Origin: an uncultured Candidatus Saccharibacteria bacterium
GTDB lineage: Bacteria; Patescibacteriota; Minisyncoccia; Phycocordibacterales; UBA918
Reading direction: 5' to 3'
Assembly (NCBI GenBank): GCA_964402035.1
Contig: CAYOAM010000001.1
Location: 96,679-160,678, forward strand
Length of the DNA stretch: 64,000 nt
The number at the start of each line of letters is the position of its first letter. Position 1 is the first letter of the stretch. Below the pieces are notes generated by a model. It had not been told where the DNA came from. It was given only the letters and a program-made list of their open reading frames with translations, and made no database searches. A program made the position numbers and the translations under genes. Shown here piece after piece: positions 2-61,200 of the stretch.

Positions 2-532
2 GTACAGCTGACTGTTACATCATTTCCTAATATGCAACCACTTGAAGCGTCGGTTGTCGAGATTAGCTCTTTACCCGATGAGAGCGGTGTTGCGCAGTAT
101 GGCGTGAAGGCGCTCATACATGCAGAGGGTGAGACACTACTATTGTTGCGAGAGGGTTTAATAGCGGACGTCCTCATTGTTAACGACGAAAAAAAGCAAG
201 CTCTTCGTGTTCCCGTTGCTGCACTTTCATATATCGATGGTACACCAAAAGTAACAGTCGTGGATGCGTTGACAGAGGAACAAAAAAAACAAGTAGCATC
301 GCAGGGTATTGTGCGTACTGATACTGCTGCGCTGGCAACGTATGTGACTCCAGTTGAACTCGGCATTATTGGAAAATTCTATGTGGAGATTATGAGTGGC
401 GTTACGGAGAATACATATTTACTCACTACTGGCACCGTGGGAACGAGTACAGGATCAGTTGTAGGTCAAGCAAATTTTGGGCCACCACGAGAGCGTACCT
501 CTTCTCCCCAAACTACGGGAGCGCGTAATTGA
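2..532 (+). CDS. C-terminal fragment of a probable periplasmic adaptor / membrane-fusion protein (MacA/HlyD-like), 5'-truncated by the window edge
   Basis: Frame is open from the window start. Gly/Thr-rich C-terminal region lies directly upstream of a MacB-type ABC ATPase and FtsX permease, the usual efflux-operon order. No diagnostic motif was seen, so the call rests on context. Confidence 0.35.
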   Translation, partial: VQLTVTSFPNMQPLEASVVEISSLPDESGVAQYGVKALIHAEGETLLLLREGLIADVLIVNDEKKQALRVPVAALSYIDGTPKVTVVDALTEEQKKQVASQGIVRTDTAALATYVTPVELGIIGKFYVEIMSGVTENTYLLTTGTVGTSTGSVVGQANFGPPRERTSSPQTTGARN

Positions 533-545
533 TCGCAGGGTCCTT

Positions 546-1262
546 ATGGAATCTAACAAAACACAGACTGACATTGTACGACTGCTTGATGTCTCAAAAA
601 GTTTTTATATGAGTGGTGGACTTGAGGTGCCGGTACTTCACCATATAAATCTCACCATACGTGATGGTGAGATGGTAGCAATTTTGGGTCAATCTGGTTC
701 AGGAAAATCTACATTAATGAACATCATTGGTGGACTTGATGTAGCAAGTCAGGGTGACTATTATTTTGCGGGAAAGCACGTCAATGGGATGTCCTCAAGT
801 GAACTGGCGGAGCTGCGCTCACGAGATATCAGTTTTGTATTCCAAGCGTTTCATTTGTTACCACAGAAAAATGTTTACCAAAATGTGCAGTTGCCACTTT
901 TATATCAGCGCGGATTTATTGGTGATGCAGATGAATACGTGACGCATGCCTTAAAGCGAGCGGCACTTGAAGAAGAGCACTGGTACAAGCGACCCAACCA
1001 GCTATCGGGTGGTCAGCGGCAGCGTGTAGCGATTGCTCGCGCACTAGTTGCAAGACCGAAGCTCTTGCTTGCGGATGAGCCCACAGGAAATCTTGATTCA
1101 AAAACCGGAGGCGCGATTATTGAGGCACTTAAATACCTCAACCAACACTACGGGACGACGATCGTCATTGTGACGCACGATGAGTCACTCTCGAGTATCG
1201 TCGATCGCGTGATCCACATCAAGGATGGAAATGTTGCAGAAGAACCTAAACGAACATCATGA
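546..1262 (+). CDS. ABC transporter ATP-binding protein, MacB/LolD-like
   Basis: Walker A GQSGSGKST, ABC signature LSGGQRQRVAIARAL, Walker B LLLADEPTGNLD, and H-loop VTHD. Start taken at MESNK rather than the upstream ATG, to avoid overlap with the preceding stop. Confidence 0.9.
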   Translation: MESNKTQTDIVRLLDVSKSFYMSGGLEVPVLHHINLTIRDGEMVAILGQSGSGKSTLMNIIGGLDVASQGDYYFAGKHVNGMSSSELAELRSRDISFVFQAFHLLPQKNVYQNVQLPLLYQRGFIGDADEYVTHALKRAALEEEHWYKRPNQLSGGQRQRVAIARALVARPKLLLADEPTGNLDSKTGGAIIEALKYLNQHYGTTIVIVTHDESLSSIVDRVIHIKDGNVAEEPKRTS

Positions 1263-2443
1263 AATTTAGATTTCTTTTACGAGAGTCAGTACAAGCTTTG
1301 CGTGGCAATATGCTGCGGTCATTGCTCACTATCGTAGGTATTGTGGTGGGTATTTTTTCTGTGACTGCCATGCTCGCACTAGGGCAGGGACTTTCAGGAA
1401 ACATTCTTGATAGGTTCAATTCCTTCACTGCAGGAGATATCACGGTCGCTGGTTCGCTGACGCAAACAGATCTTGCATGGATAAAAAACCAAAGCTATGT
1501 GTCTGCAGCGCTCGGTTCACAGAGTATCCAGAACGCCAAGGTCATTGCATTGGGTAGCGAGTTTTCACCAAGTATTCAAATGAGTTTGGGAGACTATACG
1601 TCGGTTAAAACTTTGACCATGGTCAGCGGTGCAATTTTTGATTTTAACGATGCTGCCTTCAAAGATCGAGTGGTACTCGTTGATCAAGGTTTTGTGGCGG
1701 CAGTACTGGCAGAGACGGGGCGCGATGTATCGACAGGGTCTATAACACTGAATGGCAAAGAATTTACCATAGTGGGAGTTTTTGAGGGTGGCGCTGGGGG
1801 ATTTGGGCGGCGTAATGACGGTACGGTGATTGTGCCGTATGCAGCTGCAGTCGGAGTACTGACCAACACAACAACATTTTCATCTATTGGTATTCGTCTC
1901 AAAGATACGCAATATTTTGAAGCTGCAGGTAAGCACATTTTGGAGTCACTCAATGTGTCACGCGCCGCAGAAAAGGATAGTGAAGATTATTTTAGCGTCA
2001 CCACAGCACAAGATGCGATAAAAACCGCACAAGAAACAACCTCCATGATTAGTATCTTTTTGGGTATTGTGGGTGGAATCGCGCTGTTTGTTGGTGGTAT
2101 TGGAACTATGAATATGATGCTGACGACCGTGACGGAACGCACAAGAGAAATTGGTCTTCGAAAAGCAATTGGTGCTCGGGATAGCGATATACTCCTCCAA
2201 ATACTTTTAGAAGCCGTGATGCTGACCATTATTGGAGGTGCTATTGGTATTATACTGACCTATGGTGCATCGAATATAGCGAATAGGATTTTAACAGCAG
2301 ACTCAATTATTAGTGTGGTTATGTCAGGCAGCGTTGTTGCGTATGCAACCGGTATTGCAATCGTAGTCGGCATCGTCTTTGGCCTGTATCCAGCTCAGAG
2401 AGCATCCAAGTTGCAGCCTGTCGATGCCCTTCGCGCAGAATAA
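1259..2443 (+). CDS. ABC transporter permease, FtsX/MacB-type, with a large periplasmic domain
   Basis: N-terminal TM helix, about 250-aa extracytoplasmic domain, then three C-terminal TM helices with the FtsX-like GxxxxxxxERxxEIGLxKAxGA motif (ERTREIGLRKAIGA). ATGA overlap with the upstream ATPase. Confidence 0.85.
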   Translation: MKFRFLLRESVQALRGNMLRSLLTIVGIVVGIFSVTAMLALGQGLSGNILDRFNSFTAGDITVAGSLTQTDLAWIKNQSYVSAALGSQSIQNAKVIALGSEFSPSIQMSLGDYTSVKTLTMVSGAIFDFNDAAFKDRVVLVDQGFVAAVLAETGRDVSTGSITLNGKEFTIVGVFEGGAGGFGRRNDGTVIVPYAAAVGVLTNTTTFSSIGIRLKDTQYFEAAGKHILESLNVSRAAEKDSEDYFSVTTAQDAIKTAQETTSMISIFLGIVGGIALFVGGIGTMNMMLTTVTERTREIGLRKAIGARDSDILLQILLEAVMLTIIGGAIGIILTYGASNIANRILTADSIISVVMSGSVVAYATGIAIVVGIVFGLYPAQRASKLQPVDALRAE

Positions 2444-2498
2444 GGGCTGTACAGGCGTTCAGTAAATCTTCAGCATCGTAGTGTACCCTTAAGACAAT

Positions 2499-3179
2499 AT
2501 GAAAGTAGTACTTGTTGAAGACAATAACGTTTTGCAGAAAAGTATCGAGAAGGTCTTAATACAGGAAGGGCATGCAGTCCGCTGTTTTTCTGATGGAGAA
2601 GAGGCGCTAACTTTTTTGTGTGAAGAAAAAGCAGCTGTCGATGTTGCCATCATTGATTACATGCTTCCTGGCATGGACGGCGTGACGCTGATTTCACACA
2701 TGCGGAAAGAGCATGTCGCTACACCGGTCTTAATGTTGACTGCTCGTAGCGAATTGAGTGATAAAGTGCATAGTCTTACGAGTGGAGCAGACTATTATCT
2801 TACGAAGCCTTTTGAATTTGATGAATTGTTGGCTTGTCTCACCGCACTCTATCGTCGACCAAAAAACTATCAACCACGCGTGGTAGACGTCGCTTCAGGA
2901 ATCTCATTTAATACAGATACTCGCGTGATTCGTGGAGAGAAGAAAAGTGTCTTATTGACGCCTGCAGAAGCGGGAATACTTGAGCATTTACTGCGAAATC
3001 GTGGTACAACTCTTTCGCAGCATGACCTCTATGAACATGTGTTTGATTTTGCAAAAGAAAATTGGAGTAATACGATTGAGGTCCATATCAAAAATCTACG
3101 CAAGAAATTAACACCTATAGCACATGAAAATCTTATCAAAACTGTTCGCGGTATCGGTTACCGAATGGAAATACAATGA
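2499..3179 (+). CDS. OmpR-family two-component response regulator
   Basis: Receiver-domain acidic pocket (VEDN, IIDYMLPGMDG, K at LTKP) and a C-terminal winged-helix trans_reg_C domain (TVRGIGYR). Confidence 0.9.
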   Translation: MKVVLVEDNNVLQKSIEKVLIQEGHAVRCFSDGEEALTFLCEEKAAVDVAIIDYMLPGMDGVTLISHMRKEHVATPVLMLTARSELSDKVHSLTSGADYYLTKPFEFDELLACLTALYRRPKNYQPRVVDVASGISFNTDTRVIRGEKKSVLLTPAEAGILEHLLRNRGTTLSQHDLYEHVFDFAKENWSNTIEVHIKNLRKKLTPIAHENLIKTVRGIGYRMEIQ

Positions 3180-4140
3180 ATTCTTTAAGGCCCGGGTGCA
3201 GCTGACGCTGCTGTACACGAGTATTCTCGCGGGTATACTTTTTTTGTTCTCCAGTTTTCTCTATATCACCGTTGATCGCAATTTTGAATCTGATGATAAA
3301 AATGTGGAAGAGGAGCACACTGAGTACCATGAGCAATTCGAACTGGAGTTTCTAGAGGAATTTTGGGAGAACCTCATTATCGCAAACATCATCTTGCTTG
3401 CACTCTCAACGATCCTCGGTTTCTTGTTGGCGGGAAAGACCCTTGCACCTATTCAGCGGAAAATGCGACAGCAGGAGCAGTTTAGCCAGGACGTAGCGCA
3501 TGAATTACGTACGCCACTTTCTGCACTTTATGCATCCGTTGGTGCTACCTTGCGTAACCCGTTGCTGCAGAGCGAGGCTCGAGAAACGTTTCAGGATGTG
3601 CAGCAGGAGACAAAACGCCTTATCGAACTATCAGAACGATTGCTTGCAAGTGCGCGTGGCGAACCCGCAGTGCAACATACGCTACCAGTATCGCTTGCTG
3701 ATGTAATTCGAAATGTACTAGTGAGACTAAAGGGTAGTATTGATGAAAAACAACTAACTATAGCGGCCGATTATTCACAGGATTTTGCTGTGTCGGGTGA
3801 TCCTGTACGGCTGGAAGAAATGTTTATCAATATTGTGCACAATGCGATAAAGTTTTCACATAGACGTGGGACAATTGAAATACAGATTCAAGCAGGTGGT
3901 GTTGTGGAAGTAACTGATCACGGTATGGGTATTACAAAAGAAAACCTCGATCGAGTATGGAATCGTTTTTTTACCACCAATACAGCGCGCGATGAGCGCG
4001 GCGTGCGCGGTGCTGGCCTTGGACTTGCTATTGTGCGTGAAATAGCAAAGGAGCATAGCGCGGAGATTTCACTTGATAGTGAGCTTGGCTCAGGGACAAC
4101 TATTCGAGTACATTTTTTGCAACTTGCAAAGACGATTTAA
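3124..4140 (+). CDS. Sensor histidine kinase
   Basis: TM helix, HisKA H-box HELRTPL, and HATPase_c N/G boxes (HNAIKFS, DHGMGI, GLGLAIV). Overlaps the response-regulator 3' end, typical of an operon. Confidence 0.85.
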   Translation: MKILSKLFAVSVTEWKYNEFFKARVQLTLLYTSILAGILFLFSSFLYITVDRNFESDDKNVEEEHTEYHEQFELEFLEEFWENLIIANIILLALSTILGFLLAGKTLAPIQRKMRQQEQFSQDVAHELRTPLSALYASVGATLRNPLLQSEARETFQDVQQETKRLIELSERLLASARGEPAVQHTLPVSLADVIRNVLVRLKGSIDEKQLTIAADYSQDFAVSGDPVRLEEMFINIVHNAIKFSHRRGTIEIQIQAGGVVEVTDHGMGITKENLDRVWNRFFTTNTARDERGVRGAGLGLAIVREIAKEHSAEISLDSELGSGTTIRVHFLQLAKTI

Positions 4141-4835
4141 TGGAATGCTTCGACAAAGAATGAACAATTGTGCGGGTTGTGCGTGCCAATTTTTTCTTGT
4201 AGCGCATCACAGGCTTTCACTTGGCCACACATATAAATATCTGCGTCACTAAAATCTAATGTTGATACATGATCCTGAATATAGCCTTTCCATGCATAGT
4301 CTTGCGCAATTGGATTTGATACTACATAGGTGGCGGTTACTTTTGGGTTCTTTGCGAGTAGTTCAAAGTACTCTTTGTAGATTATGTCATCTTCTGCTCT
4401 ACTGCCGGTCACGATGACTATTTTTTCAACAACCGGATTATCTATGGCGTATGCAGCGATTGATTTTATAACACCGGCACCAATTCCGAAACCAAAAAGG
4501 AATAGGTTGGGTTTACTGAGTTTGTCTCCAGTATTGCTTCCAAATGGACCCATAACAGTTACCGAATTTCCTAGTATCGAGTCTTTCCAAAATTGAGGGG
4601 TAACCTTTCCTGTTGGTGTCAGACGGACTGCTATCGTAATTGTTTTTTGTTCAACATTTGCAGAGACAACTGAATATGCTCGTCGTAGTGTCTCACCTTC
4701 AATCGATATAAATAGATTGATGAATGATCCAGGCGGGCACTCAAACAGAGACTCAAGCGAGATCGTCACTTCTTTTGCTGTGGGTGATAGTGGTGTGACA
4801 CGCGTGATGGTACCACTGCTTTTAAATATCTTCAT
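4137..4835 (-). CDS. FNR-like FAD/NAD(P)-binding oxidoreductase (ferredoxin-reductase-type)
   Basis: RAYS (RxYS) FAD-binding motif, glycine-rich GFGIGAGV nucleotide-binding loop, and C-terminal CG motif (MCGQ). ATGA-coupled to the upstream heme membrane protein. Confidence 0.6.
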   Translation of the reverse strand: MKIFKSSGTITRVTPLSPTAKEVTISLESLFECPPGSFINLFISIEGETLRRAYSVVSANVEQKTITIAVRLTPTGKVTPQFWKDSILGNSVTVMGPFGSNTGDKLSKPNLFLFGFGIGAGVIKSIAAYAIDNPVVEKIVIVTGSRAEDDIIYKEYFELLAKNPKVTATYVVSNPIAQDYAWKGYIQDHVSTLDFSDADIYMCGQVKACDALQEKIGTHNPHNCSFFVEAFH

Positions 4836-5452
4836 ATATGTTGGGTGTTATGTTCATACCGTTTTAAGGTATTGATAGTAAAAGCCAAGATGGTTAGTGA
4901 AGCCACAATGTACATGTAGTAGGCTACGGTCATATCGTGGTAGGCGAGGTAGACAAAGAGCGCGCTTGCAAAGAAATATACATAGGAAAGTCTCTGTATT
5001 CGTTTCCACCACTTTCCCAAGATTCTTTTAGAGAAATTATTTGATGTTATAAGCAGTAGTAGGGCACTTATGTCTGCAAGGTGTGCGAGCAGTGCATACC
5101 CTTCGAGTGACCAATAGTGCCATGCAAGGACGCTACCAAAAAATCCACTTGGATCAATGATTATTTTTGCAAAGGTGAACGATATAACGATTGATGCTGA
5201 AAGTACCCCAACTCCTTTTCGTAGTATAACGAGCGGACGCACGACAGGGATGCTCGGCAACATATCTGCAAGTGGACGAATGGTCATCACAAACAGTGCT
5301 GCAATGTGTGCAATGCTATAGAGAGCTGTCGCATAGCGGTTTACGGAATCTGGGTAGAATACAATTAAGACAGGCAGCGTGCCCATAATTGTAAGTGAAA
5401 TCGCTAGAAATATTTTTTGTAGATAGCGGATTATGGTGAGGTATATTTTCAT
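4832..5452 (-). CDS. Ferric-reductase-like transmembrane (di-heme b) component, MsrQ/YedZ-like
   Basis: Six predicted TM helices with paired His residues spaced for heme ligation (HIAALFVM..., HYWSLEGYALLAH). Gene order is ApbE, then TM, then FNR. Confidence 0.5.
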   Translation of the reverse strand: MKIYLTIIRYLQKIFLAISLTIMGTLPVLIVFYPDSVNRYATALYSIAHIAALFVMTIRPLADMLPSIPVVRPLVILRKGVGVLSASIVISFTFAKIIIDPSGFFGSVLAWHYWSLEGYALLAHLADISALLLLITSNNFSKRILGKWWKRIQRLSYVYFFASALFVYLAYHDMTVAYYMYIVASLTILAFTINTLKRYEHNTQHI

Positions 5453-6336
5453 ATATATGTATGTACCAATCCTGATTGAGTAATCGTGAATCCACGCACA
5501 TGTTCACCGACAGTTTTTTCAACCTCATCAATGGTGAGCGCCATCAATATCTTTGTGTACGCGTCTGATGGTGCGCCATGTTCGTGTATGACACTAGCTG
5601 AAACAATAGGTGTTGTTGGGTTATGTTGACCATTTTGATCAAGGATATGGTGTATGGTGTCACCGTCCGAAATCCAAGTCCGTTTGTATGTCCCACTTGT
5701 TGCAATACTTCTGTCGAGGAGCGGTATTGCTATGGTCTCAAGTGTTACCGGGTTCGCAATTTCAAATATAAATGGCTCGTTTACAGCGTCGACTCCGCGA
5801 GCGTGTATATCGCCACCAATATTTACTATGACTCCTTGGATTGTGGGGTGTGAATCTTGGATCCGTCGCGCCTCGATTTCAGCGAGATGTCCCTTTAAAA
5901 AACCTCCAAAATCGAGCTTCTGGTCTTCTATGAGTGTGACTGTGCGATTCTCAGTATCTACTTCTATATCATCAATACAAATATTGTAAGTACCTTGTTG
6001 TGACTTTTGTGCAGTACCCTTTATTTTGTCAAACGTAGCGGTGTATCCGAAACGCTCAATCTGAAAGAGCGGATTAAAGTACCCCCTTGTCTTCTTTGAA
6101 AGTGAAATCCCCAGCTGCAGTATTTCAAGGAATAGAGAGGTGACGCGGAGAGTTCTTTTTTGATTGAGTTGTGAGAGTTCACTTTGAGGATCAAAACGAG
6201 AAAATTGTTTTTCATACGCTTGCAGGTTTTTCCATGTCGCCTCGAAACATTGATCTGCTGTATGCTGATGTTCTGTCACGATAGATACCGACAAATCGGT
6301 ACCCATAATTTTTTTCTGAAACTCAAATTCTTGCAT
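5449..6336 (-). CDS. apbE: FAD:protein FMN transferase (ApbE family)
   Basis: ApbE-like motifs: SRFDPQSELSQLN, DFGGFLKG, NIGGDI, and a C-terminal Thr/Ser-rich FAD-binding region. No lipoprotein signal, so possibly cytoplasmic. Confidence 0.75.
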   Translation of the reverse strand: MQEFEFQKKIMGTDLSVSIVTEHQHTADQCFEATWKNLQAYEKQFSRFDPQSELSQLNQKRTLRVTSLFLEILQLGISLSKKTRGYFNPLFQIERFGYTATFDKIKGTAQKSQQGTYNICIDDIEVDTENRTVTLIEDQKLDFGGFLKGHLAEIEARRIQDSHPTIQGVIVNIGGDIHARGVDAVNEPFIFEIANPVTLETIAIPLLDRSIATSGTYKRTWISDGDTIHHILDQNGQHNPTTPIVSASVIHEHGAPSDAYTKILMALTIDEVEKTVGEHVRGFTITQSGLVHTYI

Positions 6337-6453
6337 TGCTCAAGTATCGTATAGATCGCTGAAGAAAGACTGAAGATTGGCCGTACTCAATCTTCAGACT
6401 TTCTTCAGTTGTGTCGGTCATACTGGCGTCATTATCTATTAATAGAAAACAAT

Positions 6454-6624
6454 ATGTCTCAATATGTATGTTTGGAGTGTGGATGGATCTACGACGAAGC
6501 TCTGGGTATGCCGGAGAGAGATATTGAGCCTGGAACGTTGTGGCATGAGCTACCTGATTCTTTCAAGTGTGGAGAATGTGAAGTATTGAAAGGTGAAACA
6601 CATAAATGGCAACGATTGGACTAA
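6454..6624 (+). CDS. Rubredoxin-like protein
   Basis: Two CxxC knuckles (CLECGWIY ... KCGEC) with the intervening rubredoxin-type G-P...W motif. Start chosen at MSQYVC. Confidence 0.7.
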   Translation: MSQYVCLECGWIYDEALGMPERDIEPGTLWHELPDSFKCGECEVLKGETHKWQRLD

Positions 6625-6659: not shown

Positions 6660-7184
6660 ATGAACACCGATCTCAGGAATGTACTGTTCTCATTTGGTGC
6701 AGTATTTCTGGTACTGTTTGGTACCAGCGATATCTATATGCGCACGCAGTTGCAGCAGGTCATATTGGAAAATGAGCAGATTCAAGAGGAACTTACAAAA
6801 CAAACTGAGCTCATCGAGCTTAATACAGATGATCCACTGGCTACCATGGACGACGTCAATGATGCTCTCACGGACACGCCAGTACCAGTGGTACAAAAAG
6901 CTCCTGACGTCGTAGTGCCAAGCAAAGATATCGTGGAAGTCTCAAAGAAGGCTAGCCTTCCTGCAGTACCGAAGCCTGTTTCTGTAGATACCACAGCAGC
7001 CGATGCCGCTTTAGTTGCACGTCTCAAGGCTGAAGCGCAATTGGCAGCAGAAAAGCAAAAGGCCATTGATGCGGCAAAAATAAAAGCTCAAGAATTGGCA
7101 AAATCTATCGCCGCAGAGAAGAAAAAGATAGACCAAGCTGCTGCAGCGAAAAAGAAGAAAAGTCGCCAGTCACGAGCGAGTTAG
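6660..7184 (+). CDS. Membrane-anchored coiled-coil protein, Ala/Lys-rich, hypothetical
   Basis: N-terminal TM helix followed by a low-complexity AEKQKAIDAAKIKAQE-type coiled coil. No catalytic motifs. Confidence 0.4.
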   Translation: MNTDLRNVLFSFGAVFLVLFGTSDIYMRTQLQQVILENEQIQEELTKQTELIELNTDDPLATMDDVNDALTDTPVPVVQKAPDVVVPSKDIVEVSKKASLPAVPKPVSVDTTAADAALVARLKAEAQLAAEKQKAIDAAKIKAQELAKSIAAEKKKIDQAAAAKKKKSRQSRAS

Positions 7185-9614: not shown

Positions 9615-10118
9615 ATGGATACACTTTCACATGGGCTCTATGGTGGTATCGCATTTGGTCGTACGTCGAAAATCCGCTATGGGATTGCATTTCTCTTTGG
9701 CATTATGCCGGACATGCTTTCGTTTGGGATACTGTTTGCTCTTACCATCCTTGGCTTTGTGTCAGGTCCAGAGTTTGCTTCGGGTCCGCCACCGATGTCA
9801 TCTATTCCCGAGTATGTACATCATCTCTACAACATCACGCATAGTTTTTTTGTCGCTGGGGCAGTCATCGCTCTTGTGTGGTGGTGGCATGAGGCACCGC
9901 TCATGGAAATGTTTGCGTGGCCACTCCATATACTGGTTGATATCCCAACGCATTCGACAAAATTTTTTGCGACACCATTTCTCTGGCCAGTGTCTGACTT
10001 TAAAATTGACGGCGTGAGTTGGAGTCATCCATATATTTTTATTCCGAATGTTATTTTTTTGTTAGGTCTCCACTTATGGTTTTATTTTAAACGTAGAGGA
10101 CGACAACGTAGCGTATGA
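9615..10118 (+). CDS. Membrane-bound metal-dependent hydrolase, DUF457/YdjM-like
   Basis: Polytopic membrane protein with His/Asp cluster HILVDIPTH and an N-terminal MDTLSHGL motif resembling the DUF457 family. Family-level only. Confidence 0.45.
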   Translation: MDTLSHGLYGGIAFGRTSKIRYGIAFLFGIMPDMLSFGILFALTILGFVSGPEFASGPPPMSSIPEYVHHLYNITHSFFVAGAVIALVWWWHEAPLMEMFAWPLHILVDIPTHSTKFFATPFLWPVSDFKIDGVSWSHPYIFIPNVIFLLGLHLWFYFKRRGRQRSV

Positions 10119-10139: not shown

Positions 10140-10508
10140 ATGAACATAAAAGAAATATTAAAACTTAGCAGCATTCCCGTTGTGCTCGCGTCGTTGTGCT
10201 GTCTCTCGCCAGTCATCCTTGTGCTCCTGGGTCTCGCTTCAGTGAGTTTTGCTTCCTCACTTGCAGATACGTTTTATGGGGAATACAAGTGGGTCTTTCG
10301 TATGGTGGGACTCATAGCCCTTTTAGGATCCCTCGCGTACTACTTACGCCGCACAAAAGGTATTTGCACGATCGATGATGTAAAGCGAAGACGAAATGAA
10401 ATATTAAACTACATTGCACTCACGGTCATTGCGGGGGTTGTGGGGTACATTTTTTTCCTCTATGTTGTGGTGCACTATGTAGGTGTGTGGCTAGAGATTT
10501 GGAAGTAG
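10140..10508 (+). CDS. Small MerT-like membrane protein with vicinal Cys pair in TM1
   Basis: LASLCCLSPVILVLLGLAS resembles the MerT TM1 CC motif. Three TM helices, 122 aa. The 3' end is duplicated as a 39-bp repeat at 11503-11541. Confidence 0.35.
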   Translation: MNIKEILKLSSIPVVLASLCCLSPVILVLLGLASVSFASSLADTFYGEYKWVFRMVGLIALLGSLAYYLRRTKGICTIDDVKRRRNEILNYIALTVIAGVVGYIFFLYVVVHYVGVWLEIWK

Positions 10509-10872: not shown

Positions 10873-11475
10873 TCATGGTGACGAATATATGCACGCGCTA
10901 TCATCTGGTGCTCGGTTGAATACTACGTTGCCACCCCACGCCTCAATTCCACCAGGATCTATACCCCCGTCGTTCATGGTTGCATGGTATCTTTTACCCG
11001 CCCAACGGAATGTCATCCAGTATCCACCATCATAGACATGTACGCATCCAAGCCTCATGCCAGTGTATGCGTCGGTATAATTCATACCTATGTAGCTTGG
11101 TCCTATATGCTTTAGATATAAATAACCACTATATGCGCCTGGAAATGGGACTTGGGGGTAGTTCGGGTACGGTATATTAGCTAGATAGGGTAATAAAATG
11201 TTTCCAAGATCGTCCCACTCTGCCGGGTAGTAACTCTGACGTCTGAATGGTGCAATAGTGACAGGATAATATCCGTTTGTGTCATGATATAACTCCACAG
11301 CATTTTGTACGGCTCGCAGGTCAAGTGCTGCTTTTGCAATAGACGTCGCTTCACGCGACTTTGTAAGTGAAGCGAGTACCACACTTGCCAAAAGTGAAAT
11401 AATAGCAATGACTACCATAAGCTCAATAAGTGTAAAGCCGTAAACATGATTCAGCTTTTTCAGTAGTCTCTTCAT
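10873..11475 (-). CDS. Type IV pilin-like protein (prepilin-type N-terminal cleavage/methylation domain)
   Basis: MKRLLKKLNHVYG|FTLIELMVVIAII: short basic leader, G-1, F+1, E+5, hydrophobic helix. Start chosen at MKRLL. Confidence 0.8.
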   Translation of the reverse strand: MKRLLKKLNHVYGFTLIELMVVIAIISLLASVVLASLTKSREATSIAKAALDLRAVQNAVELYHDTNGYYPVTIAPFRRQSYYPAEWDDLGNILLPYLANIPYPNYPQVPFPGAYSGYLYLKHIGPSYIGMNYTDAYTGMRLGCVHVYDGGYWMTFRWAGKRYHATMNDGGIDPGGIEAWGGNVVFNRAPDDSACIYSSP

Positions 11476-11632
11476 GTGCATCATTATAGGATACAAAGTT
11501 CTTTCCTCTATGTTGTGGTGCACTATGTAGGTGTGTGGCTAACCATTTGGAGCTAGTCTCTAAAGGGTGGCATTGCTTTTCTGGAAGCATAATCCATCCC
11601 TATAATTCTCTTTTTGGGTCCTATTTCGTGTG

Positions 11633-11841: not shown

Positions 11842-12474
11842 TTAATTGTTTATGAATATGTGACCGGGGTGACAGCCGGTGGGATCTGAAACCATGTCTA
11901 CTGATCCTCCTGCCACCTCAAAGGCTTCTGGATCTGCACCACCATCATGTGTAGAGATATAAGATGGGCGATTTACCCACGCGCCATATAAATAATAGCC
12001 GTTTCTAATATAGACACACCCTACAGTGCCGGCGCTGATAGTACTTATGTTCAATGCTAGGTCTCCCATACCTGCAGACTGTTTGACATAATAATAGTGT
12101 GAGGTTGCTGTCGATGGATATGGGGGGTAGGGCATTGCCGATAAGTATGGTTGTAATAAGGTCCCAATACTATTTAGATACACATAACCCCAGAAATTGT
12201 AAATGACACCTAATTCAACGCGAGTCGAAGCGTCCCGTCTAGAGCTAATTGGTGGGTAATCGCCGTGGTCCTCTTTGTATTGTTCAAGTGCAAGCTGAAT
12301 ATTTTTTATATCTTGCATAACTTTTACCCACGTCGCTTTTTCTCTTGCCGAGCTTACTGAAGCAAGTACCGTACTTGAGAGTACTGAAATAATAGAAACC
12401 ACTACCATAAGCTCAATCAGCGTAAAACCATACGCATATTTGTACTTTTTAAGATGTTTCTTCATCTTCGTCAT
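11842..12474 (-). CDS. Type IV pilin-like protein, paralog of 10873..11475
   Basis: KKHLKKYKYAYG|FTLIELMVVVSII prepilin motif. C-terminal DGGADPEAFEVAGGSV region is similar to the first pilin. Alternative start at 12465. Confidence 0.8.
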   Translation of the reverse strand: MTKMKKHLKKYKYAYGFTLIELMVVVSIISVLSSTVLASVSSAREKATWVKVMQDIKNIQLALEQYKEDHGDYPPISSRRDASTRVELGVIYNFWGYVYLNSIGTLLQPYLSAMPYPPYPSTATSHYYYVKQSAGMGDLALNISTISAGTVGCVYIRNGYYLYGAWVNRPSYISTHDGGADPEAFEVAGGSVDMVSDPTGCHPGHIFINN

Positions 12475-58172: not shown

Positions 58173-58268
58173 GCAGGTAGTGGTTCATATACACATCTGT
58201 CATACGATGACTGATGGAAGGGTAGGCTATAATTTATAATAGCCCCAATTTTAACCAATTTTTGGGGC

Positions 58269-61200
58269 GTGGTTTTGACGTATATAGTGCCATACATTAA
58301 TTTTCTCAAACGCCATACCGTGGTTCTGCTACTCTGCGTGAGTGTAGTTGTTTTGGTATGTGTCTCTGTGGTCCATGGTGATGAAACTCCATATTCACTT
58401 CGAACGCTCTACGTCTTTCCAAGCTCCGTCACCACGACGTCGTGGGTTGGAGTCGAGAAGATATATTCGCAAGAATATGACGATCATGCGTTGTACCAAG
58501 ATTTTAGAAAAAGTGGTGCTGCGTATCTTGATACAACACCGGTGTATGTCGTGCCCGCTCCCGTCCCGGAATCAACGACTGATACTGTAGGTACCGATCG
58601 AACGGACGCGGTTTCCGACCCAGAGACATCTTCGACCGATGCTATAGATATTCAGGCTCCATCATCAGATAGCGAAATTAGTGACGCTCCTATTGATGCC
58701 GAGGTCGATGCTCCGGTCGCGCCACCGGTTGCACCCCCATCCACTTCAGAAGATGAGACATCGACGCCCGAACCTTTACCGGAAGCAGCAACAGAACCTG
58801 CCGCTCAAACCGAGTCGAGCGAACCTCCCGCTGTCGAGCCTCTAACAAAAGCTGAAGGGAAGTGGTCCTTGGTATTTGCGCAAGTATTTGAGCGCGCATT
58901 GTCGGTATTTGCAAGCACAGAAACTGAAATTACGTCTTCAACGAGTGATCCTACGCAAGGAAGTGCAAACGTCGCTCTACCGCAAGATGAACCAACGTCA
59001 GATATACCCACAGTAGTGGAGAATGAACTACCTGTGGTGCCGGAGAATGTACCCGACCTGAGTCCAATCGCAACGTCAACATCGGATGTTCAGACGGATG
59101 CTGTTGAGTCAGACAGTCAAACTGCTGAACCGTCGAATGACCTAGCAGAAAGTGTGTCACCGTATTTTTGCGAGGGACAGGAAGGTTGTGCGGTGTCACC
59201 GATCGTATTTGATGGATTTGCATTACCTGAGCTTGGCTCTGGTGAGTTTATTGAAGATGCGCAGTTGCGACTTTCGTTTGCGGGTAAACCAAAGAAAGAT
59301 TTTGCAGGAGAAGATCAGGGACTCGTGATTGAATATATGTTGGACGGAGCGTGGAATGAAGCGGGTACGGTACCACTCAATGAAGAGGTGTCAAATGCTA
59401 TTAATGGTGGATACTATCTTTTTGCATTACCAGCCATCGATAGTGTCGCACGACTCAGTAATCTCCATGTGCGTGTTACCTACTATGGCAATCCAGAAAA
59501 CCTAGAAGGAATCTATGTCGATAGTTTGTGGCTGGAGCTTGGAGTGCAGTCAATAGATGAAGCATCACTTCGTGCCCATGTATTACCAGACGCCCTGGAA
59601 GAGCTAAAAAAACCTGCTGAGCATGAGTTGTTGAGCACTGAGCTTGATTTCACGCTTGATGAATTGCCGAATTTTACGCTCAAATACATCGAGCAGCGTA
59701 ATGCCATCATTCAGTTTTTCCGCAGTATTTTTGCGGACAAAATAGCTGAAGTAACGCACGTGATATTGGTACATGAGGACTTTGGTGATGTGGGTGTAGA
59801 GCCAGAACTCTTTATGACCGATGAAGGCTTGTGGACCATCAAGATTCCTGAAAGTGAACGAGAAAAAATGCGTCCAGGTCTCTACAGTTTGCAGATTGAG
59901 GTTGCAGAAGGCAACGCGCTCTATCGAGACTCATTTGAATTCCAATGGGGACTTTTGGCACTCAATGTAAACAAAAGTGAATATGTAGTCGGGGAAACAG
60001 CGCGTATTTCGCTTGCTGCACTTTCTCAAAATGGAAATACGATTTGTGATGCGAGTCTGTCACTGTATGTTATTGCTCCCGATAATTTTATACAGAAAGT
60101 GCCGGTTGTGGAGTCTGGTCTATGTAAAGGAAACAACGTAGTCGATGTTCCTGACTATGCGGGCACCTTTGTGACATCCTTGCCCGGCACCCATACATTT
60201 TATGTAGAACGACTGGATCCTTCTGGCGATGTTATTGCGCACACCGAAGACACATTTGAGGTGGTTTCTGATGCGCCTATTTCGATTGAACGATCGGGAC
60301 CAACGCGTATTTATCCTGTTGCTCCGTACACCATGTCAGTAACCGTTTCTGCACGAGCAGCGTTTACGGGCACATTTGTAGATATTGCACCACATGACTA
60401 TGAGATTAGTAATACTGATGCGATTATCACTGTTGAGGACGATAAGAAAAAATTGACATGGGACATTGCACTTTTGGCAGGTGAATCAAAAACATTTACG
60501 TACACATTTGATTCCCCAGACATAAGTCCCTATCTCTACATGCTAGGGCCGGCGTCAGTTTTGCTTGATGGAGATATTTCAACAATGTCAGAAGCGACAC
60601 CGACAGATAGAGTGGAGCCGCAGATGACCGAAGAGATTCCAATATTCGATGATGTAGCAAGTACATCTGCACTCGATAGTGTGGTACCGGTGGAGCCACT
60701 CGCTGAACCAACGCCTGTCGAGCAGTCAAATGCTGAAAACGTAGACGTCCCCGTCACTCCTCTTGAGCCGACGTTGTCTGTGCCTACTGAAAGTGAAAAT
60801 ACCGTCGTAGCGCCAAGTGCGGAAACAGATACCACTCCAGAATCTGCTCCACTGGAAGCTGAGGTCATACCCGAAGATGCGAGTTTATCAGAGACCCCGC
60901 CACTTATATTGCCTTCTGATACTGAGACATTGTTCCAAAGTACCTACGTTGAAGAGATGGGAAGTACGACCGGAGCACTCGTCGATGCTGTAGATACCGG
61001 TAGAGATGCTGTGGCTGTTGTTCGGTCATTTACGGAACATCGCCGCTGGCAAATAGCGTCAGATGCCACCGGGAGCATGATTGTACTCTGGACTGACGGC
61101 GCTAGTATTCCATCGGGGTGGACCTGTATTTCATGTAATGCTACGCAGACGGCATTTCAGCGTTTTCCAAAAGGTGGAGCAACGTATGGTACAACGGGTG

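Follow-up and report, generated by a model that had tools for sequence, protein, structure and literature searches.

The following features were found around an apbE gene in the 64-kb window, by which we mean the whole stretch of DNA analysed.

2499..3179, plus strand: OmpR-family response regulator (Pfam Response_reg 95.8 bits, Trans_reg_C 75.5 bits)
3124..4140, plus strand: sensor histidine kinase (Pfam HisKA 46 bits, HATPase_c 85.8 bits)
4137..4835, minus strand: soluble FNR-family NAD(P)H reductase (PF00970 39.8 bits, PF00175 39.9 bits)
4832..5452, minus strand: six-helix FRD-fold (MsrQ/STEAP-like) membrane protein, with the flavin site kept and the canonical heme ligands absent
5449..6336, minus strand: ApbE-family FAD:protein FMN transferase (PF02424 142 bits), without signal peptide or lipobox
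6359..6408, no strand: 21-nt inverted repeat in the divergent intergenic region between apbE and rubredoxin
6451..6624, plus strand: rubredoxin, Fe(Cys)4 (PF00301 59.8 bits)
6660..7184, plus strand: tail protein, a candidate ApbE acceptor, downstream of rubredoxin and belonging to a conserved family
7161..7181, plus strand: putative degenerate flavinylation site S-R-Q-S-R-A-S, the seven C-terminal codons of the tail protein, with Ser174 as the proposed acceptor

The three minus-strand genes encode proteins of 232, 206 and 295 aa in the order listed. The rubredoxin lies in the open reading frame 6409-6624, within which the ATG at 6451 is the more likely start. The first-pass annotation named an ApbE, an FNR-like reductase, a six-helix FRD-fold membrane protein and a divergent rubredoxin, and all four are real. 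It also described the minus-strand genes as translationally coupled, and the ATGA overlaps are indeed seen in the DNA at 4832-4835 and 5449-5452. The 4-nt overlap is conserved among loci, being kept at 36 of 56 junctions between apbE and the membrane-protein gene, and at 31 of 56 for the other junction. Among 80 genome loci, 58 from several classes of Patescibacteria have the order ApbE>FRD>FNR, which is far beyond chance, and rubredoxin accompanies the triad in 53 of these 58. ApbE keeps the company of the FRD gene even where the other parts have been fused or reordered.

The feature is larger than was first annotated, since the response regulator and kinase (2499-4140) and the tail protein (6660-7184) lie within the conserved neighbourhood. 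Nine loci are arranged as Rub>tail>ApbE>FRD>FNR, and in these the tail stop codon lies a few nucleotides before the apbE start. The two-component pair adjoins the triad in 35 of 58 loci, and additionally in L089, L106, L107 and L111; in most relatives the response regulator is placed between rubredoxin and apbE. The kinase has two transmembrane helices and a short extracytoplasmic loop, which is acidic in 35/35 orthologues and variable in sequence. The response regulator shares 33% identity with HprR of E. coli, which is encoded by a gene pair divergent from msrPQ. A two-component system in this position may control expression of the module.

The ApbE protein carries the conserved catalytic residues of the ApbE/Ftp flavin transferases (K148, G174-G175-D176, S214, R219, H230 and an acidic residue at 258, together with the aromatic F48), and to judge from these it looks catalytically intact. 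Among them are the catalytic His, the GGD motif and an acidic ligand for Mg. Its start is bounded by an in-frame TGA two codons upstream of the ATG, all 57 of 57 orthologues begin M-x-E-[FY]...MGT, and no signal peptide is found in any locus.

The membrane protein matches PF01794 and the NCBIfam MsrQ model weakly, in both cases under the curated cut-off (17.3 against 28, and 23.2 against 130), and its similarity to MsrQ is marginal (hhalign E 0.011). The loops at 59-79 and 137-155 are positively charged, so both termini are predicted to be cytoplasmic. This agrees with the redox domains found fused at either end of the FRD in relatives. The MsrQ residues R77, R78, L131, S135, W147 and H151, whose roles in the flavin site have been described (PMC12525009), correspond to R78, K79, L133, S137, W149 and Q153, all invariant. 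The register is the same in two independent alignments, and the residues hold in all sub-clades. The alignments thus point to a conserved flavin pocket of the MsrQ/STEAP type on the cytoplasmic face.

The heme ligands are a different matter. The positions of MsrQ H91 and H164 are taken by F92/I88 and F/Y166, and the alignments show no histidine in helices 3 and 5, although more distant relatives retain the MsrQ-type pair there. The first-pass annotation had called this a di-heme protein, a description that does not survive the loss of the bis-His pattern. The same annotation had named the absence of that pattern beforehand as a refutation. A different, co-varying pair (H49/H124) is present in most members of the clade, including the protein in the window, and the protein could bind one heme at most through these non-canonical residues. 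Nine module-bearing relatives have neither H49 nor H124, so a heme relay cannot be general.

These results bear on the suggestion that the locus encodes a two-heme cytochrome of the NOX/ferric-reductase type, split from its dehydrogenase and passing electrons to O2 or Fe(III), or else a repair system of the MsrPQ type that supplies a methionine-sulfoxide reductase in the periplasm. The weak profile matches would fit, as would the JGI label of the relatives ('YedYZ heme-binding membrane subunit') and the divergent OmpR-type two-component system, which mirrors E. coli hprRS-msrPQ. However, with helices 3 and 5 devoid of histidine, four-His or canonical two-His ligation is impossible; the scores lie under both cut-offs; there is no MsrP-like molybdoenzyme among the conserved neighbours; and a rubredoxin or ferredoxin is obligatory here, while NOX and MsrQ/Fre systems have none. 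We regard this suggestion as very improbable, and the alignments already largely refute it.

The FNR-like protein consists of FAD-binding and NAD-binding domains with no Fe-S domain. It matches BenC (81 bits) and Fre PRK08051 (53 bits) over its full length but below threshold, and its RxYS motif is RAYS (52-55). The rubredoxin CxxC...CxxC pattern is invariant in 54 orthologues. We propose that rubredoxin is the cytoplasmic one-electron carrier of the module. Natural fusions join the same parts in single polypeptides: FRD-Rubredoxin-FNR (P0222, P0231, P0245), FRD-Fd-FNR (P0240), FRD-Fd (P0193, P0216, P0232) and Fd-FNR-FRD (L081-L083, L087-L089, L096, L097), a 4Fe-4S ferredoxin domain substituting for rubredoxin in the last three. 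The earlier description of a split NOX/Fre-type unit with its own flavinylation enzyme fits these fusions.

The target of that enzyme is less obvious. As had been remarked from the first, there is no evident SGAT-motif substrate: [ST]GA[ST] is absent from ApbE, FRD, FNR and rubredoxin, and D..[ST]GA[ST] from every open reading frame of at least 100 aa in the window, which covers about 6% of a roughly 1-Mb genome. In several sister modules, by comparison, an exported FMN_bind protein adjoins ApbE (L088, L082, L096, L097 and L105). The L088 protein (33.5 bits) has TGAS and SLH domains, and that of L105 the motif DTISGAS. The ApbE of these modules likewise has no signal sequence, and the family therefore evidently serves an exported acceptor. 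D183 is the sole ApbE position separating enzymes of tail-type loci from those of FMN_bind-type loci, a point against the tail acceptor discussed below.

The limited reach of the window leaves room for an ApbE with no substrate in the module, acting as an FAD-binding or FAD-hydrolysing helper that supplies FMN, or as a housekeeping enzyme with substrates elsewhere that sits in the operon for co-regulation. CPR bacteria depend generally on scavenged cofactors, which would suit such a role. Some ApbE/Ftp proteins do hydrolyse FAD to FMN (PMC4436053). The aromatic residue at the FAD-stacking position, however, decides between transferase and pyrophosphatase behaviour, and T. pallidum Ftp owes its pyrophosphatase activity to Asn55 (PMC4436053); the corresponding position here is the invariant F48, the state tied solely to FAD binding and transfer. 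Gene order and 4-nt overlaps maintained over 58 loci in several classes of Patescibacteria, the persistence of ApbE beside FRD, and relatives with a cognate acceptor next to ApbE also speak against this explanation, which we consider unlikely.

A better candidate is the tail protein. A membrane helix at its N-terminus is followed by a low-complexity linker (Ala/Gln/Lys/Glu), and its extreme C-terminus is conserved. Pfam gives no match, a single-sequence search with the protein returned nothing beyond itself, and in the AF2 single-sequence model a helix at the N-terminus precedes a disordered middle part and an end of low confidence. The family nevertheless comprises 62 distinct sequences from 63 loci (variants included). 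Its genes always adjoin rubredoxin or ApbE, and among the loci examined it occurs only where ApbE is present. The consensus is S-R-x-[ST]-x-A-S-COOH, with Ser(0), Ala(-1) and Ser/Thr(-3) in 62/62 sequences and Arg(-5) in 61/62; position -2, equivalent to the canonical Gly of the ApbE motif D-x-x-[S/T]-G-A-[S/T], is variable. The two motifs thus coincide at [S/T], A and the acceptor. The tail codons use all synonymous families, so that selection is on the peptide, and the background frequency of [ST]xAS termini is 9 in 5635 open reading frames. A strict [ST]RAS tail is found in 46 loci, every one with ApbE, and in 0 of 20 FRD loci lacking ApbE; in the loci examined it never occurs together with an FMN_bind acceptor. 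It extends to distant lineages (...RRTRAS in L077 and ...VTRAS in L089).

Known ApbE enzymes need just a linear 7-mer, work best at termini, and tolerate D->A and G->A (PMC12052999), and unstructured C-terminal extensions of FMN_red proteins have been shown to be flavinylated (PMC11334425). The tail protein is the strongest candidate for the flavinylation target that had seemed to be 'missing'. Against this, the canonical Asp is absent, Ser-Arg taking the place of Asp-x, and there is usually Arg at the expected Gly. The motif is at the literal C-terminus, and no flavin-binding domain accompanies it as one does in known ApbE substrates. To our knowledge all proven sites contain [S/T]-G-A-[S/T], and we know of no ApbE shown to accept a site of the tail type. 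If true, it would represent a previously unrecognised kind of ApbE target, seven residues at the end of a membrane-tethered protein.

Judged by the positive-inside rule, by AxA-like cleavage sites that one sub-clade has, and by L084, in which a TM-plus-coiled-coil segment is naturally fused behind FRD helix 6, the tail protein is predicted to be N-in/C-out. Since ApbE has no signal peptide, enzyme and proposed site are apparently on opposite sides of the membrane, unlike known ApbE/substrate pairs. The bona fide FMN_bind substrates of the sister modules present the same paradox, which therefore does not single out the tail.

The paradox disappears if the cytoplasmic ApbE covalently modifies the membrane protein itself, with FMN on a non-canonical Ser/Thr in or close to its flavin pocket, or else the FNR-like protein. 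A loosely bound MsrQ-type FMN would thereby become a permanent cofactor, and the function of the tail protein would be a separate one, in structure, docking or regulation. ApbE, flavin pocket, FNR and rubredoxin would then all be cytoplasmic, the pocket is fully conserved, and apbE is coupled to the membrane-protein gene at the majority of junctions noted above. Engineered ApbE 'flavin-fixing' of non-covalent flavoproteins works with the motif near the FMN phosphate (PMC12052999), and it has been suggested that flavinylation evolved naturally at sites where flavin is bound non-covalently (PMC11334425). However, neither membrane protein nor FNR has a [ST]GA[ST]- or [ST]xA[ST]-like sequence beside the pocket. 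The conserved Ser/Thr residues of the membrane protein (S85, S87, S115, T136, S137, S141) are all kept to the same degree in 13 stand-alone relatives with no ApbE nearby, and the signal-less ApbE of sister modules has a clear exported substrate beside it. We therefore find this proposal doubtful, if less so than a substrate-free ApbE.

On the basis of these observations, the most likely function of this conserved CPR/Patescibacteria module is to move electrons taken from NAD(P)H across the membrane. More specifically, we tentatively hypothesise, at a little under even odds, that the region is a CPR-specific, split, rubredoxin-containing variant of the 'MsrQ-like' flavinylation-associated electron-transfer systems, with the tail as ApbE acceptor. 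The evidence for this is all computational. We infer that NAD(P)H would reduce the soluble FNR-like flavoprotein (4137-4835), which would pass electrons to rubredoxin (6451-6624), and this in turn would deliver them singly to the cytoplasmic face of the FRD-fold protein (4832-5452). The transmembrane step may in this organism use one heme on H49/H124. Electrons would then arrive at an extracytoplasmic flavin, namely FMN that ApbE (5449-6336) would have joined, as a phosphoester, to the terminal serine of the tail protein. The N-terminal helix would anchor that protein in the membrane, and on its long, flexible linker the flavin would be able to move back and forth from the membrane protein to an acceptor outside, for which Fe(III) or O2 is probable. 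The simplest route from a signal-less ApbE to an exported substrate would be modification of the unfolded precursor before Sec export. Cytosolic ApbE is known from Klebsiella.

The 'MsrQ-like' systems are bioinformatically defined and mainly from Actinobacteria (Meheust et al. 2021, eLife, PMC8238504; Huang et al. 2024, mSystems, PMC11334425). They share with this module an FRD-family membrane protein, an NAD-binding reductase module and apbE in one cluster, a proposed flow from cytosolic NAD(P)H to an extracytosolic flavinylated acceptor, and, in the five sister modules, an exported FMN_bind protein. They differ in that the reductase here is separate (and where fused in relatives, often N-terminal to FRD), that rubredoxin or a 4Fe-4S ferredoxin is an added obligatory carrier, that the membrane protein is sub-threshold for PF01794 and lacks the conserved histidines, that ApbE has no signal peptide, and that a tail-bearing tether replaces FMN_bind, DUF2271 or DUF3570 proteins. 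E. coli MsrQ (YedZ) and the flavin reductase Fre form a two-component NOX-like system (Carpentier et al. 2025, PMC12525009). MsrQ is also a six-helix FRD-fold protein of about 210 aa, with an FMN pocket on the cytoplasmic face made from the same residues (R77/R78, L131, S135, W147), supplied by a separate soluble FNR-family reductase (about 232 aa), and with an OmpR-type two-component system adjoining divergently. Unlike the present module, it ligates one heme with H91 and H164, has MsrP as partner, has His151 in the pocket where Gln153 is found here, and holds its FMN non-covalently with no involvement of ApbE or rubredoxin. NOX/DUOX/SpNOX proteins bind two hemes on four His of helices 3 and 5, and STEAP one heme on His of the same helices; in both the dehydrogenase is fused, with no Fe-S or rubredoxin intermediate and no flavinylation enzyme.

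We found no catalogue of ApbE clusters in Patescibacteria in the literature. CPR bacteria are strikingly under-represented in the main survey of flavinylation, whose filters (signal peptide, PF01794 match) would miss the cluster described here. VIT1 is occasionally co-located with 'MsrQ-like' systems; VIT1 and AhpC are neighbours in only 5-6 related loci, and neither is a neighbour in the window. Finally, the arms of the inverted repeat (6359-6379 and 6388-6408) were found by repeat search to be 95% complementary, with an 8-nt spacer. In 56 other loci the region upstream of apbE showed no similar element; the repeat is thus no conserved part of the module, and may be a lineage-specific operator or a 5'-UTR hairpin.

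The genes concerned are as follows, those of the minus strand being taken from the ORF list and the DNA.

4137-4835, minus strand: FNR-like protein, 232 aa
4832-5452, minus strand: ferric-reductase-fold (FRD) membrane protein, 206 aa
5449-6336, minus strand: ApbE, 295 aa
6451-6624, plus strand, divergent from the other three: rubredoxin, listed from TTG 6409; the conserved protein begins at ATG 6451
6660-7184, plus strand, directly downstream of the rubredoxin gene: tail protein, 174 aa, with no Pfam match; found to be conserved by de novo clustering of neighbours

The first-pass annotation had described three ATGA-coupled genes on the minus strand with a divergent rubredoxin, and the ORF list and the DNA both bear this out, the start and stop codons overlapping at 5449-5452 and 4832-4835. 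None of the module components in the window has a signal peptide. Homologues of the membrane protein form more than 420 clusters at 90% identity, and those that are named come from Candidatus Parcubacteria, Nomurabacteria, Paceibacterota and Pacebacteria. The survey of loci, taking one genome per species, yielded 80 loci. In 58 of them ApbE, membrane protein and FNR-like protein are encoded on one strand and in one order, with rubredoxin no more than 3 kb away in 53 of the 58, and an OmpR-type response regulator (RR) and histidine kinase (HK) adjoining the triad in 35. The most frequent layout (33 loci) is Rub< HK< RR< followed by ApbE> FRD> FNR>. The window differs, in that its two-component genes (2499-4140) lie at the opposite end and converge on the FNR gene. 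Of the 56 junctions of each kind, 36 (ApbE>FRD) and 31 (FRD>FNR) keep the 4-nt overlap. The same order across 58 loci and the conservation of the overlap itself show the triad to be a conserved operon, not genes placed together by chance. The module ranges over Paceibacteria, Nomurabacteria, Kaiserbacteria, Gracilibacteria, Peregrinibacteria and relatives. The original observation is therefore confirmed, and it extends beyond the genes first noted to the tail protein and to the two-component system of the conserved neighbourhood.

The membrane protein has the six transmembrane helices of the FRD fold. It scores 17.3 bits against PF01794 (Ferric_reduct), below the gathering score of 28, and the precomputed Pfam field is blank for all 120 homologues listed; distant relatives with fused domains do exceed the cut-off (P0216, 35.4; P0240, 32.2). 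Orthology to MsrQ is not supported (equivalog NF003831, 23.2 bits against a cut-off of 130). A profile search of PDB sequences gave no match, and Foldseek gave weak matches. The family is small: from 1.84 billion clusters, an exhaustive profile search recovered 249 FRD-family representatives (E<=1e-3). The abundance of Arg and Lys in loops 59-79 and 137-155 assigns these loops and both termini to the cytoplasm.

In E. coli MsrQ the heme ligands are His91 and His164, the FMN site needs Arg77 and Arg78, and the flavin pocket is lined by Leu131, Ser135, Trp147 and His151 (Carpentier et al. 2025, PMC12525009). The MsrQ sequence was aligned by hhalign and with an HMM of 70 family members, and the two concur on the C-terminal (helix 4-5) register. 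Both alignments match Leu131, Ser135, Trp147 and His151 to Leu133, Ser137, Trp149 and Gln153, and the hhalign alignment matches Arg77 and Arg78 to Arg78 and Lys79. Five of the six residues of the predicted pocket are thus identical or conservative, with His151 replaced by Gln, and all six positions (R78, K79, L133, S137, W149, Q153) are invariant across the family, including sub-clades without ApbE. The protein is accordingly predicted to have an MsrQ-type FMN pocket on its cytoplasmic face.

The heme ligands are a different matter. The earlier interpretation combined an electron-transfer architecture, which stands, with a di-heme membrane protein, which does not: the bis-His pattern on which it depended is absent from the alignment. 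His91 and His164 of MsrQ align to Ile88/Phe92 and Phe166, and neither helix 3 (residues 74-99) nor helix 5 (147-171) contains a His, whichever alignment is used. On these two helices NOX has two His pairs and STEAP and MsrQ one each, whereas the window protein has none. Distant FRD members fused to ferredoxin or rubredoxin keep His at both canonical positions; both are gone in the window clade and in the ferredoxin-FNR-FRD fusions. Since the distant fused members still have them, the loss of the canonical ligands is a derived state. The idea that a covalent flavin replaced the heme was rejected, as linkage to ApbE does not track the loss (in loci L106 and L108 the pair is kept and ApbE adjoins). 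A flavinylation site within the membrane protein was also rejected, as no conserved Ser or Thr separates ApbE-linked from ApbE-less members.

An alternative pair, His49 (helix 2) and His124 (helix 4), is found in 47 of 57 window-clade proteins, including that of the window. From their positions along the helices, the two are about equally deep in the outer leaflet. Both have been lost together (Leu49/Pro124) in nine clade proteins, which retain the whole module. This co-variation suggests a joint role for the two residues, possibly as ligands of one heme in the same cavity; given the nine module-bearing proteins that lack both, such a heme is not a general requirement of the module. The sub-clade without the pair (L053, L055, L056 and L059-L064; FRD genes near 6001-6600) still has one operon of ApbE, FNR, rubredoxin and tail protein, with an ECF-sigma-like gene and a 245-aa membrane protein replacing the two-component system. 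Stand-alone relatives have Phe49/His124 in place of the His pair. In these Moranbacteria-type loci (L065-L076; e.g. L068, 2524-8715) the membrane protein occurs alone, with no redox partner nearby, always preceded by a GH1 glycosidase and a 564-aa membrane glycosyltransferase-like protein and followed by RecG.

The rubredoxin matches PF00301 with 59.8 bits (cut-off 23), and its CxxC pairs (CLEC and CGEC) are invariant in 54 orthologues. The FNR-like protein passes both FAD_binding_6 (39.8 bits) and NAD_binding_1 (39.9 bits), and is thus a member of the FNR family, though an orthologue of neither Fre (PRK08051, 53 against 230) nor BenC (81 against 430). NCBIfam assigns no module protein as an orthologue of any named enzyme. 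Fusions were read from Pfam on distant family members and on the fetched loci.

Natural fusions of FRD with redox domains (P, distant FRD-family proteins; L, loci)
FRD-Rubredoxin-FNR: P0222, P0231, P0245
FRD-ferredoxin-FNR: P0240
FRD-ferredoxin: P0193, P0216, P0232
ferredoxin-FNR-FRD: L081-L083, L087-L089, L096, L097
FMN_red-FRD: P0182

Cytoplasmic redox domains are fused at either terminus of FRD, which fits the cytoplasmic location of both termini, and in the FRD-first fusions it is the small iron protein that adjoins the membrane domain. Together with the co-occurrence of rubredoxin and triad, the fusions settle the predicted place of rubredoxin in the electron chain. The simplest path would run from NAD(P)H through the FNR-like flavoprotein and rubredoxin to the membrane protein, and then outward to an extracytoplasmic flavin. 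We commit to this function for the module, namely that it carries electrons outward, from NAD(P)H to a flavin on the extracytoplasmic side. Its likely purpose, the weakest part of our account, is to provide an electron sink and/or to reduce Fe(III) or defend against oxygen.

ApbE looks intact. It scores 142 bits against PF02424 (cut-off 25.6) and 58 against the equivalog PRK10461 (498), a score so far below the cut-off that it marks a family member and not the orthologue of E. coli ApbE. Residues were mapped by alignment to solved ApbE structures (reference residues Tp K165, S240, R245, D284 and T288, and the aromatic position Tp N55 / Se Y78) and by conservation in the family. Lys148, the GGD motif, Ser214, Arg219 and His230 are invariant, and His230 is the counterpart of the general base (V. 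cholerae His257, T. pallidum His256). At position 258 all 57 orthologues have an acidic residue, which in the window is Asp. The second Mg ligand (Tp T288) is not matched, its counterpart in most members being K262. The position that stacks on the isoalloxazine ring is always occupied by Phe (Phe48). T. pallidum Ftp has Asn55 there, and its change to Tyr ends FAD pyrophosphatase activity and leaves the transferase (PMC4436053). An aromatic residue at this position argues for a transferase rather than a flavin-hydrolysing helper. No residue set specific to the ApbE of tail-type modules emerged: D183 alone stands out, and the outgroups are too few.

ApbE starts nine residues ahead of a conserved MGT, and two codons before this start there is a stop codon. 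The N-terminus is not hydrophobic, and all 57 orthologues begin alike. There is no signal peptide or lipobox, and none of the 57 orthologues or of 8 fusion-type relatives can be extended to one; a signal peptide hidden by an alternative start was rejected, as neither a start codon further upstream nor a hydrophobic extension is present. All the sequence criteria available predict that ApbE stays in the cytoplasm.

What, then, would ApbE modify? No obvious substrate had been recognised, and the motif check agrees: [ST]GA[ST] is absent from the four module proteins, D..[ST]GA[ST] is absent from the window ORFs of at least 100 aa, and the four window ORFs with a bare [ST]GA[ST] do not belong to flavin-acceptor families. 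The nearest thing to the motif in the window is the C-terminal S-R-Q-S-R-A-S of the tail protein (AAKKKKSRQSRAS; a canonical tag is GVDGLSGATLTS). This protein has an N-terminal hydrophobic helix ('MKKDLxNVxITF...') and a low-complexity linker, very variable in length and composition (Ala/Gln/Lys/Glu-rich or Pro/Val/Thr-rich), so that total length varies from 79 to 257 aa. The C-terminus is S-R-x-[S/T]-x-A-S (62 distinct sequences from 63 loci).

Conservation of the tail, numbered back from the C-terminal residue (0)
Position 0: Ser, 62/62
Position -1: Ala, 62/62
Position -2: variable; Arg 46, also Lys, Ser, Gln, Ala, Asn, His
Position -3: Ser/Thr, 62/62
Position -5: Arg, 61/62

The Arg, Ala and Ser codons of the tail use all synonymous families, which points to selection on the peptide itself and rules out a DNA or RNA element. 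Among 5635 other ORFs in the same loci, 9 end in [ST]xAS, and in the window the tail protein is the only ORF ending in R-[AG]-[ST]. A single-sequence search with the tail protein found itself only, and a profile search gave 9 hits, low-complexity words saturating the candidate list. Directly after the gene for this basic tail, some loci encode another small protein with a membrane anchor, whose C-terminus is strongly acidic (e.g. ...EDEDEDERDDD; L009 2436-2816, L031 2292-2750, L041 2461-2772, L109 2060-2422 and about four others); it is absent from the window.

The tail can be set beside what is known of ApbE substrates. In the motif D-x-x-[S/T]-G-A-[S/T], FMN is joined to the last residue; a linear 7-mer is enough, tags work best at a terminus, changing Asp to Ala has minor effects, and Gly to Ala still gives about half-maximal flavinylation (review, PMC12052999). 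The tail is 7 residues long, is conserved at the [S/T], Ala and acceptor positions, and varies at that of the tolerant Gly. Flavinylation of unstructured C-terminal extensions has been shown for FMN_red proteins (Huang et al. 2024, PMC11334425); these have the canonical motif and an adjoining flavin-binding domain, unlike the tail protein, and are a precedent for a site in a tail.

Genomic context gives a similar picture. All 46 loci with the strict [ST]RAS tail also have ApbE, and none of the 20 FRD loci that lack ApbE has such a tail. Nine loci have the order Rub> tail> ApbE> FRD> FNR, the tail stop codon lying a few nt before the apbE start, and two more contexts reached by the profile search show the same module again. 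The tail is also present in two distant lineages of differing architecture: L077 has ferredoxin> FNR> tail protein (...ARRTRAS)> TM protein> FRD> ApbE with overlapping junctions, and L089 has RR> HK> secreted low-complexity protein (...THAVTRAS)> Fd-FNR-FRD> ...> ApbE. Sister modules that lack the tail protein have instead, beside ApbE and directly upstream of it, an exported FMN_bind protein with a recognisable site.

Acceptors in sister modules
L088, 2915-5994: signal peptide, FMN_bind (33.5 bits) with NTVTGAS, three SLH domains; stop codon overlaps apbE start
L082, 6468-7740: FMN_bind lipoprotein
L096, 4742-6010: FMN_bind lipoprotein
L097, 4674-5990: FMN_bind lipoprotein
L105, 3932-5863: lipoprotein with DTISGAS, directly upstream of FRD-Rd-FNR

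The sites in the L082, L096 and L097 lipoproteins are SGAS, AGGS or AGAS. The L088 protein also ends in TAAS; this follows a poly-Ala run, is probably compositional, and is not counted as evidence. In the loci compared, the tail protein and an FMN_bind acceptor never occur together, and the tail protein thus fills the genomic and, by inference, the functional slot of the flavinylated acceptor.

The location of the two proteins presents a difficulty. The N-terminal flank of the tail-protein helix is more positive than the C-terminal flank, one sub-clade has AxA-like signal-peptidase sites, and in L084 a TM-plus-coiled-coil segment is fused past FRD helix 6, which forces the segment outside. On these grounds the tail protein is predicted to be N-in/C-out, and with ApbE predicted to be cytoplasmic, enzyme and site are seemingly across the membrane from each other. 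The ApbEs of the sister modules likewise have no possible signal peptide, though their substrates have lipoboxes or SLH domains. Since unambiguous FMN_bind substrates show the same mismatch, a signal-less ApbE with an exported substrate is a trait of these systems and no specific objection to the tail. Export of the tail protein by Tat would be compatible with cytoplasmic flavinylation, and was rejected because the N-termini (MKKDLRNV...) have no twin-arginine motif. As ApbE requires just a linear motif, the simplest reconciliation, which is speculation, would be that the precursor is flavinylated in the cytoplasm while still unfolded and is then exported by Sec, the C-terminal site crossing the translocon last. 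We know of no description of this mode of flavoprotein biogenesis.

From motif logic and comparative genomics, flavinylation of the tail, taken alone, is a tentative proposal that we rate as somewhat less likely than not. Much the same, or slightly lower, is our rating of the wider claim that the tail protein would be an ApbE substrate of a novel class, or 'flavin tag' of natural origin, carrying FMN on its C-terminal Ser with no flavin-binding domain, flavinylated on the cytoplasmic precursor before Sec export and serving as a swinging-arm flavin outside the cell. The full mechanism, in which a membrane-anchored, low-complexity tether would hold a flavin arm fed by an FRD protein without canonical heme ligands, we consider nearly evenly balanced, leaning slightly towards doubt.

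The closest kind of system described is the 'MsrQ-like' one, whose architecture works alike: an FRD membrane protein, often with an NAD-binding domain, apbE, an extracytosolic FMN-binding protein and sometimes VIT1, for which transfer of electrons from NAD(P)H to the outside has been proposed (Meheust et al. 2021, PMC8238504). It was defined by a PF01794 gene no more than 5 genes from apbE, FMN_bind, DUF2271 or DUF3570, at least one of these having a signal peptide or lipidation site (PMC8238504). The window module falls outside this definition, with PF01794 below threshold, a signal-less ApbE and no FMN_bind or DUF protein; L088 and L105 come closer to it. It differs further in that the reductase is a separate protein, the rubredoxin step appears obligatory, the canonical heme ligands are missing and the putative acceptor is of another kind. 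Judged by its predicted components, the module is a flavinylation-associated electron-transfer variant not previously captured under that definition. The same survey found CPR (Patescibacteria) to be 'strikingly underrepresented' in protein flavinylation (Meheust et al. 2021, PMC8238504), and its filters account for its having missed the module. A full-text literature search found no paper linking ApbE with Patescibacteria, Parcubacteria or CPR.

The module also resembles E. coli MsrQ/Fre, down to the divergent OmpR-type two-component system (hprRS). However, it is without MsrP (no MsrP-like molybdoenzyme is among the conserved neighbours at the 58 loci) and the sequence similarity is marginal. 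NOX, STEAP and MsrQ/Fre have no obligatory iron-protein step, while the window family appears to have one.

The CPR are thought to be fermentative, cofactor-poor and without respiratory chains. The module suggests that they do have a pathway dedicated to carrying electrons from NAD(P)H out of the cell, which bears on their redox balance, iron acquisition and oxygen tolerance on hosts. If the wider claim about the tail protein is true, flavin-based extracytosolic electron transfer would be common in CPR, against the current survey. If ApbE does accept an [S/T]-x-A-S C-terminus, this would be a new substrate class and a naturally evolved minimal flavin tag, maybe useful for labelling.

The neighbours offer few clues to function. 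The extracytoplasmic loop of the HK is acidic, and a PmrB-like Fe(III)-sensing ExxE loop was rejected because the sequence is not conserved. VIT1 is near the module in 6 related loci (L011, L015, L017, L018, L021, L111) and AhpC in 5 (L011, L017, L021, L039, L111); neither is in the window, and with so few loci, all related, they were set aside as a functional clue. The region between the divergent apbE and rubredoxin starts contains one further feature.

6359-6408: inverted repeat of 21 nt, 95% complementary, 8-nt spacer

As the equivalent region of 56 other loci has no such repeat, the idea that it is an operator shared by the family was rejected. It may be an operator particular to this lineage, or a 5'-UTR hairpin, gained when the two-component genes left this position. 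The window RR and HK genes overlap by 56 nt and adjoin a MacB-type ABC pair (ATPase 477-1262, FtsX/MacB_PCD 1259-2443; region 477-4140); in L107 (773-8471), FRD-Fd comes before RR, HK, the gene of a YknX-like protein and a further MacB-type ABC pair. From this adjacency, the two-component system may also control the ABC transporter.

Further along the window, a multi-pass membrane protein of 167 aa (9615-10118), which matches no family, lies upstream of a 122-aa membrane protein (10140-10508) with an N-terminal 'LCCLSP' Cys pair and a MerT score of 29 bits, against a cut-off of 32.9. Two type-IV-pilin-like genes (10873-11523 and 11842-12474; N_methyl prepilin motif in the source annotation), with small ORFs between them, form a pair typical of CPR surface-appendage loci. 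Finally, an ORF of more than 1922 aa (58233-64000), which runs past the window end and has a weak Ig-like domain as its sole match, probably encodes a giant surface protein.
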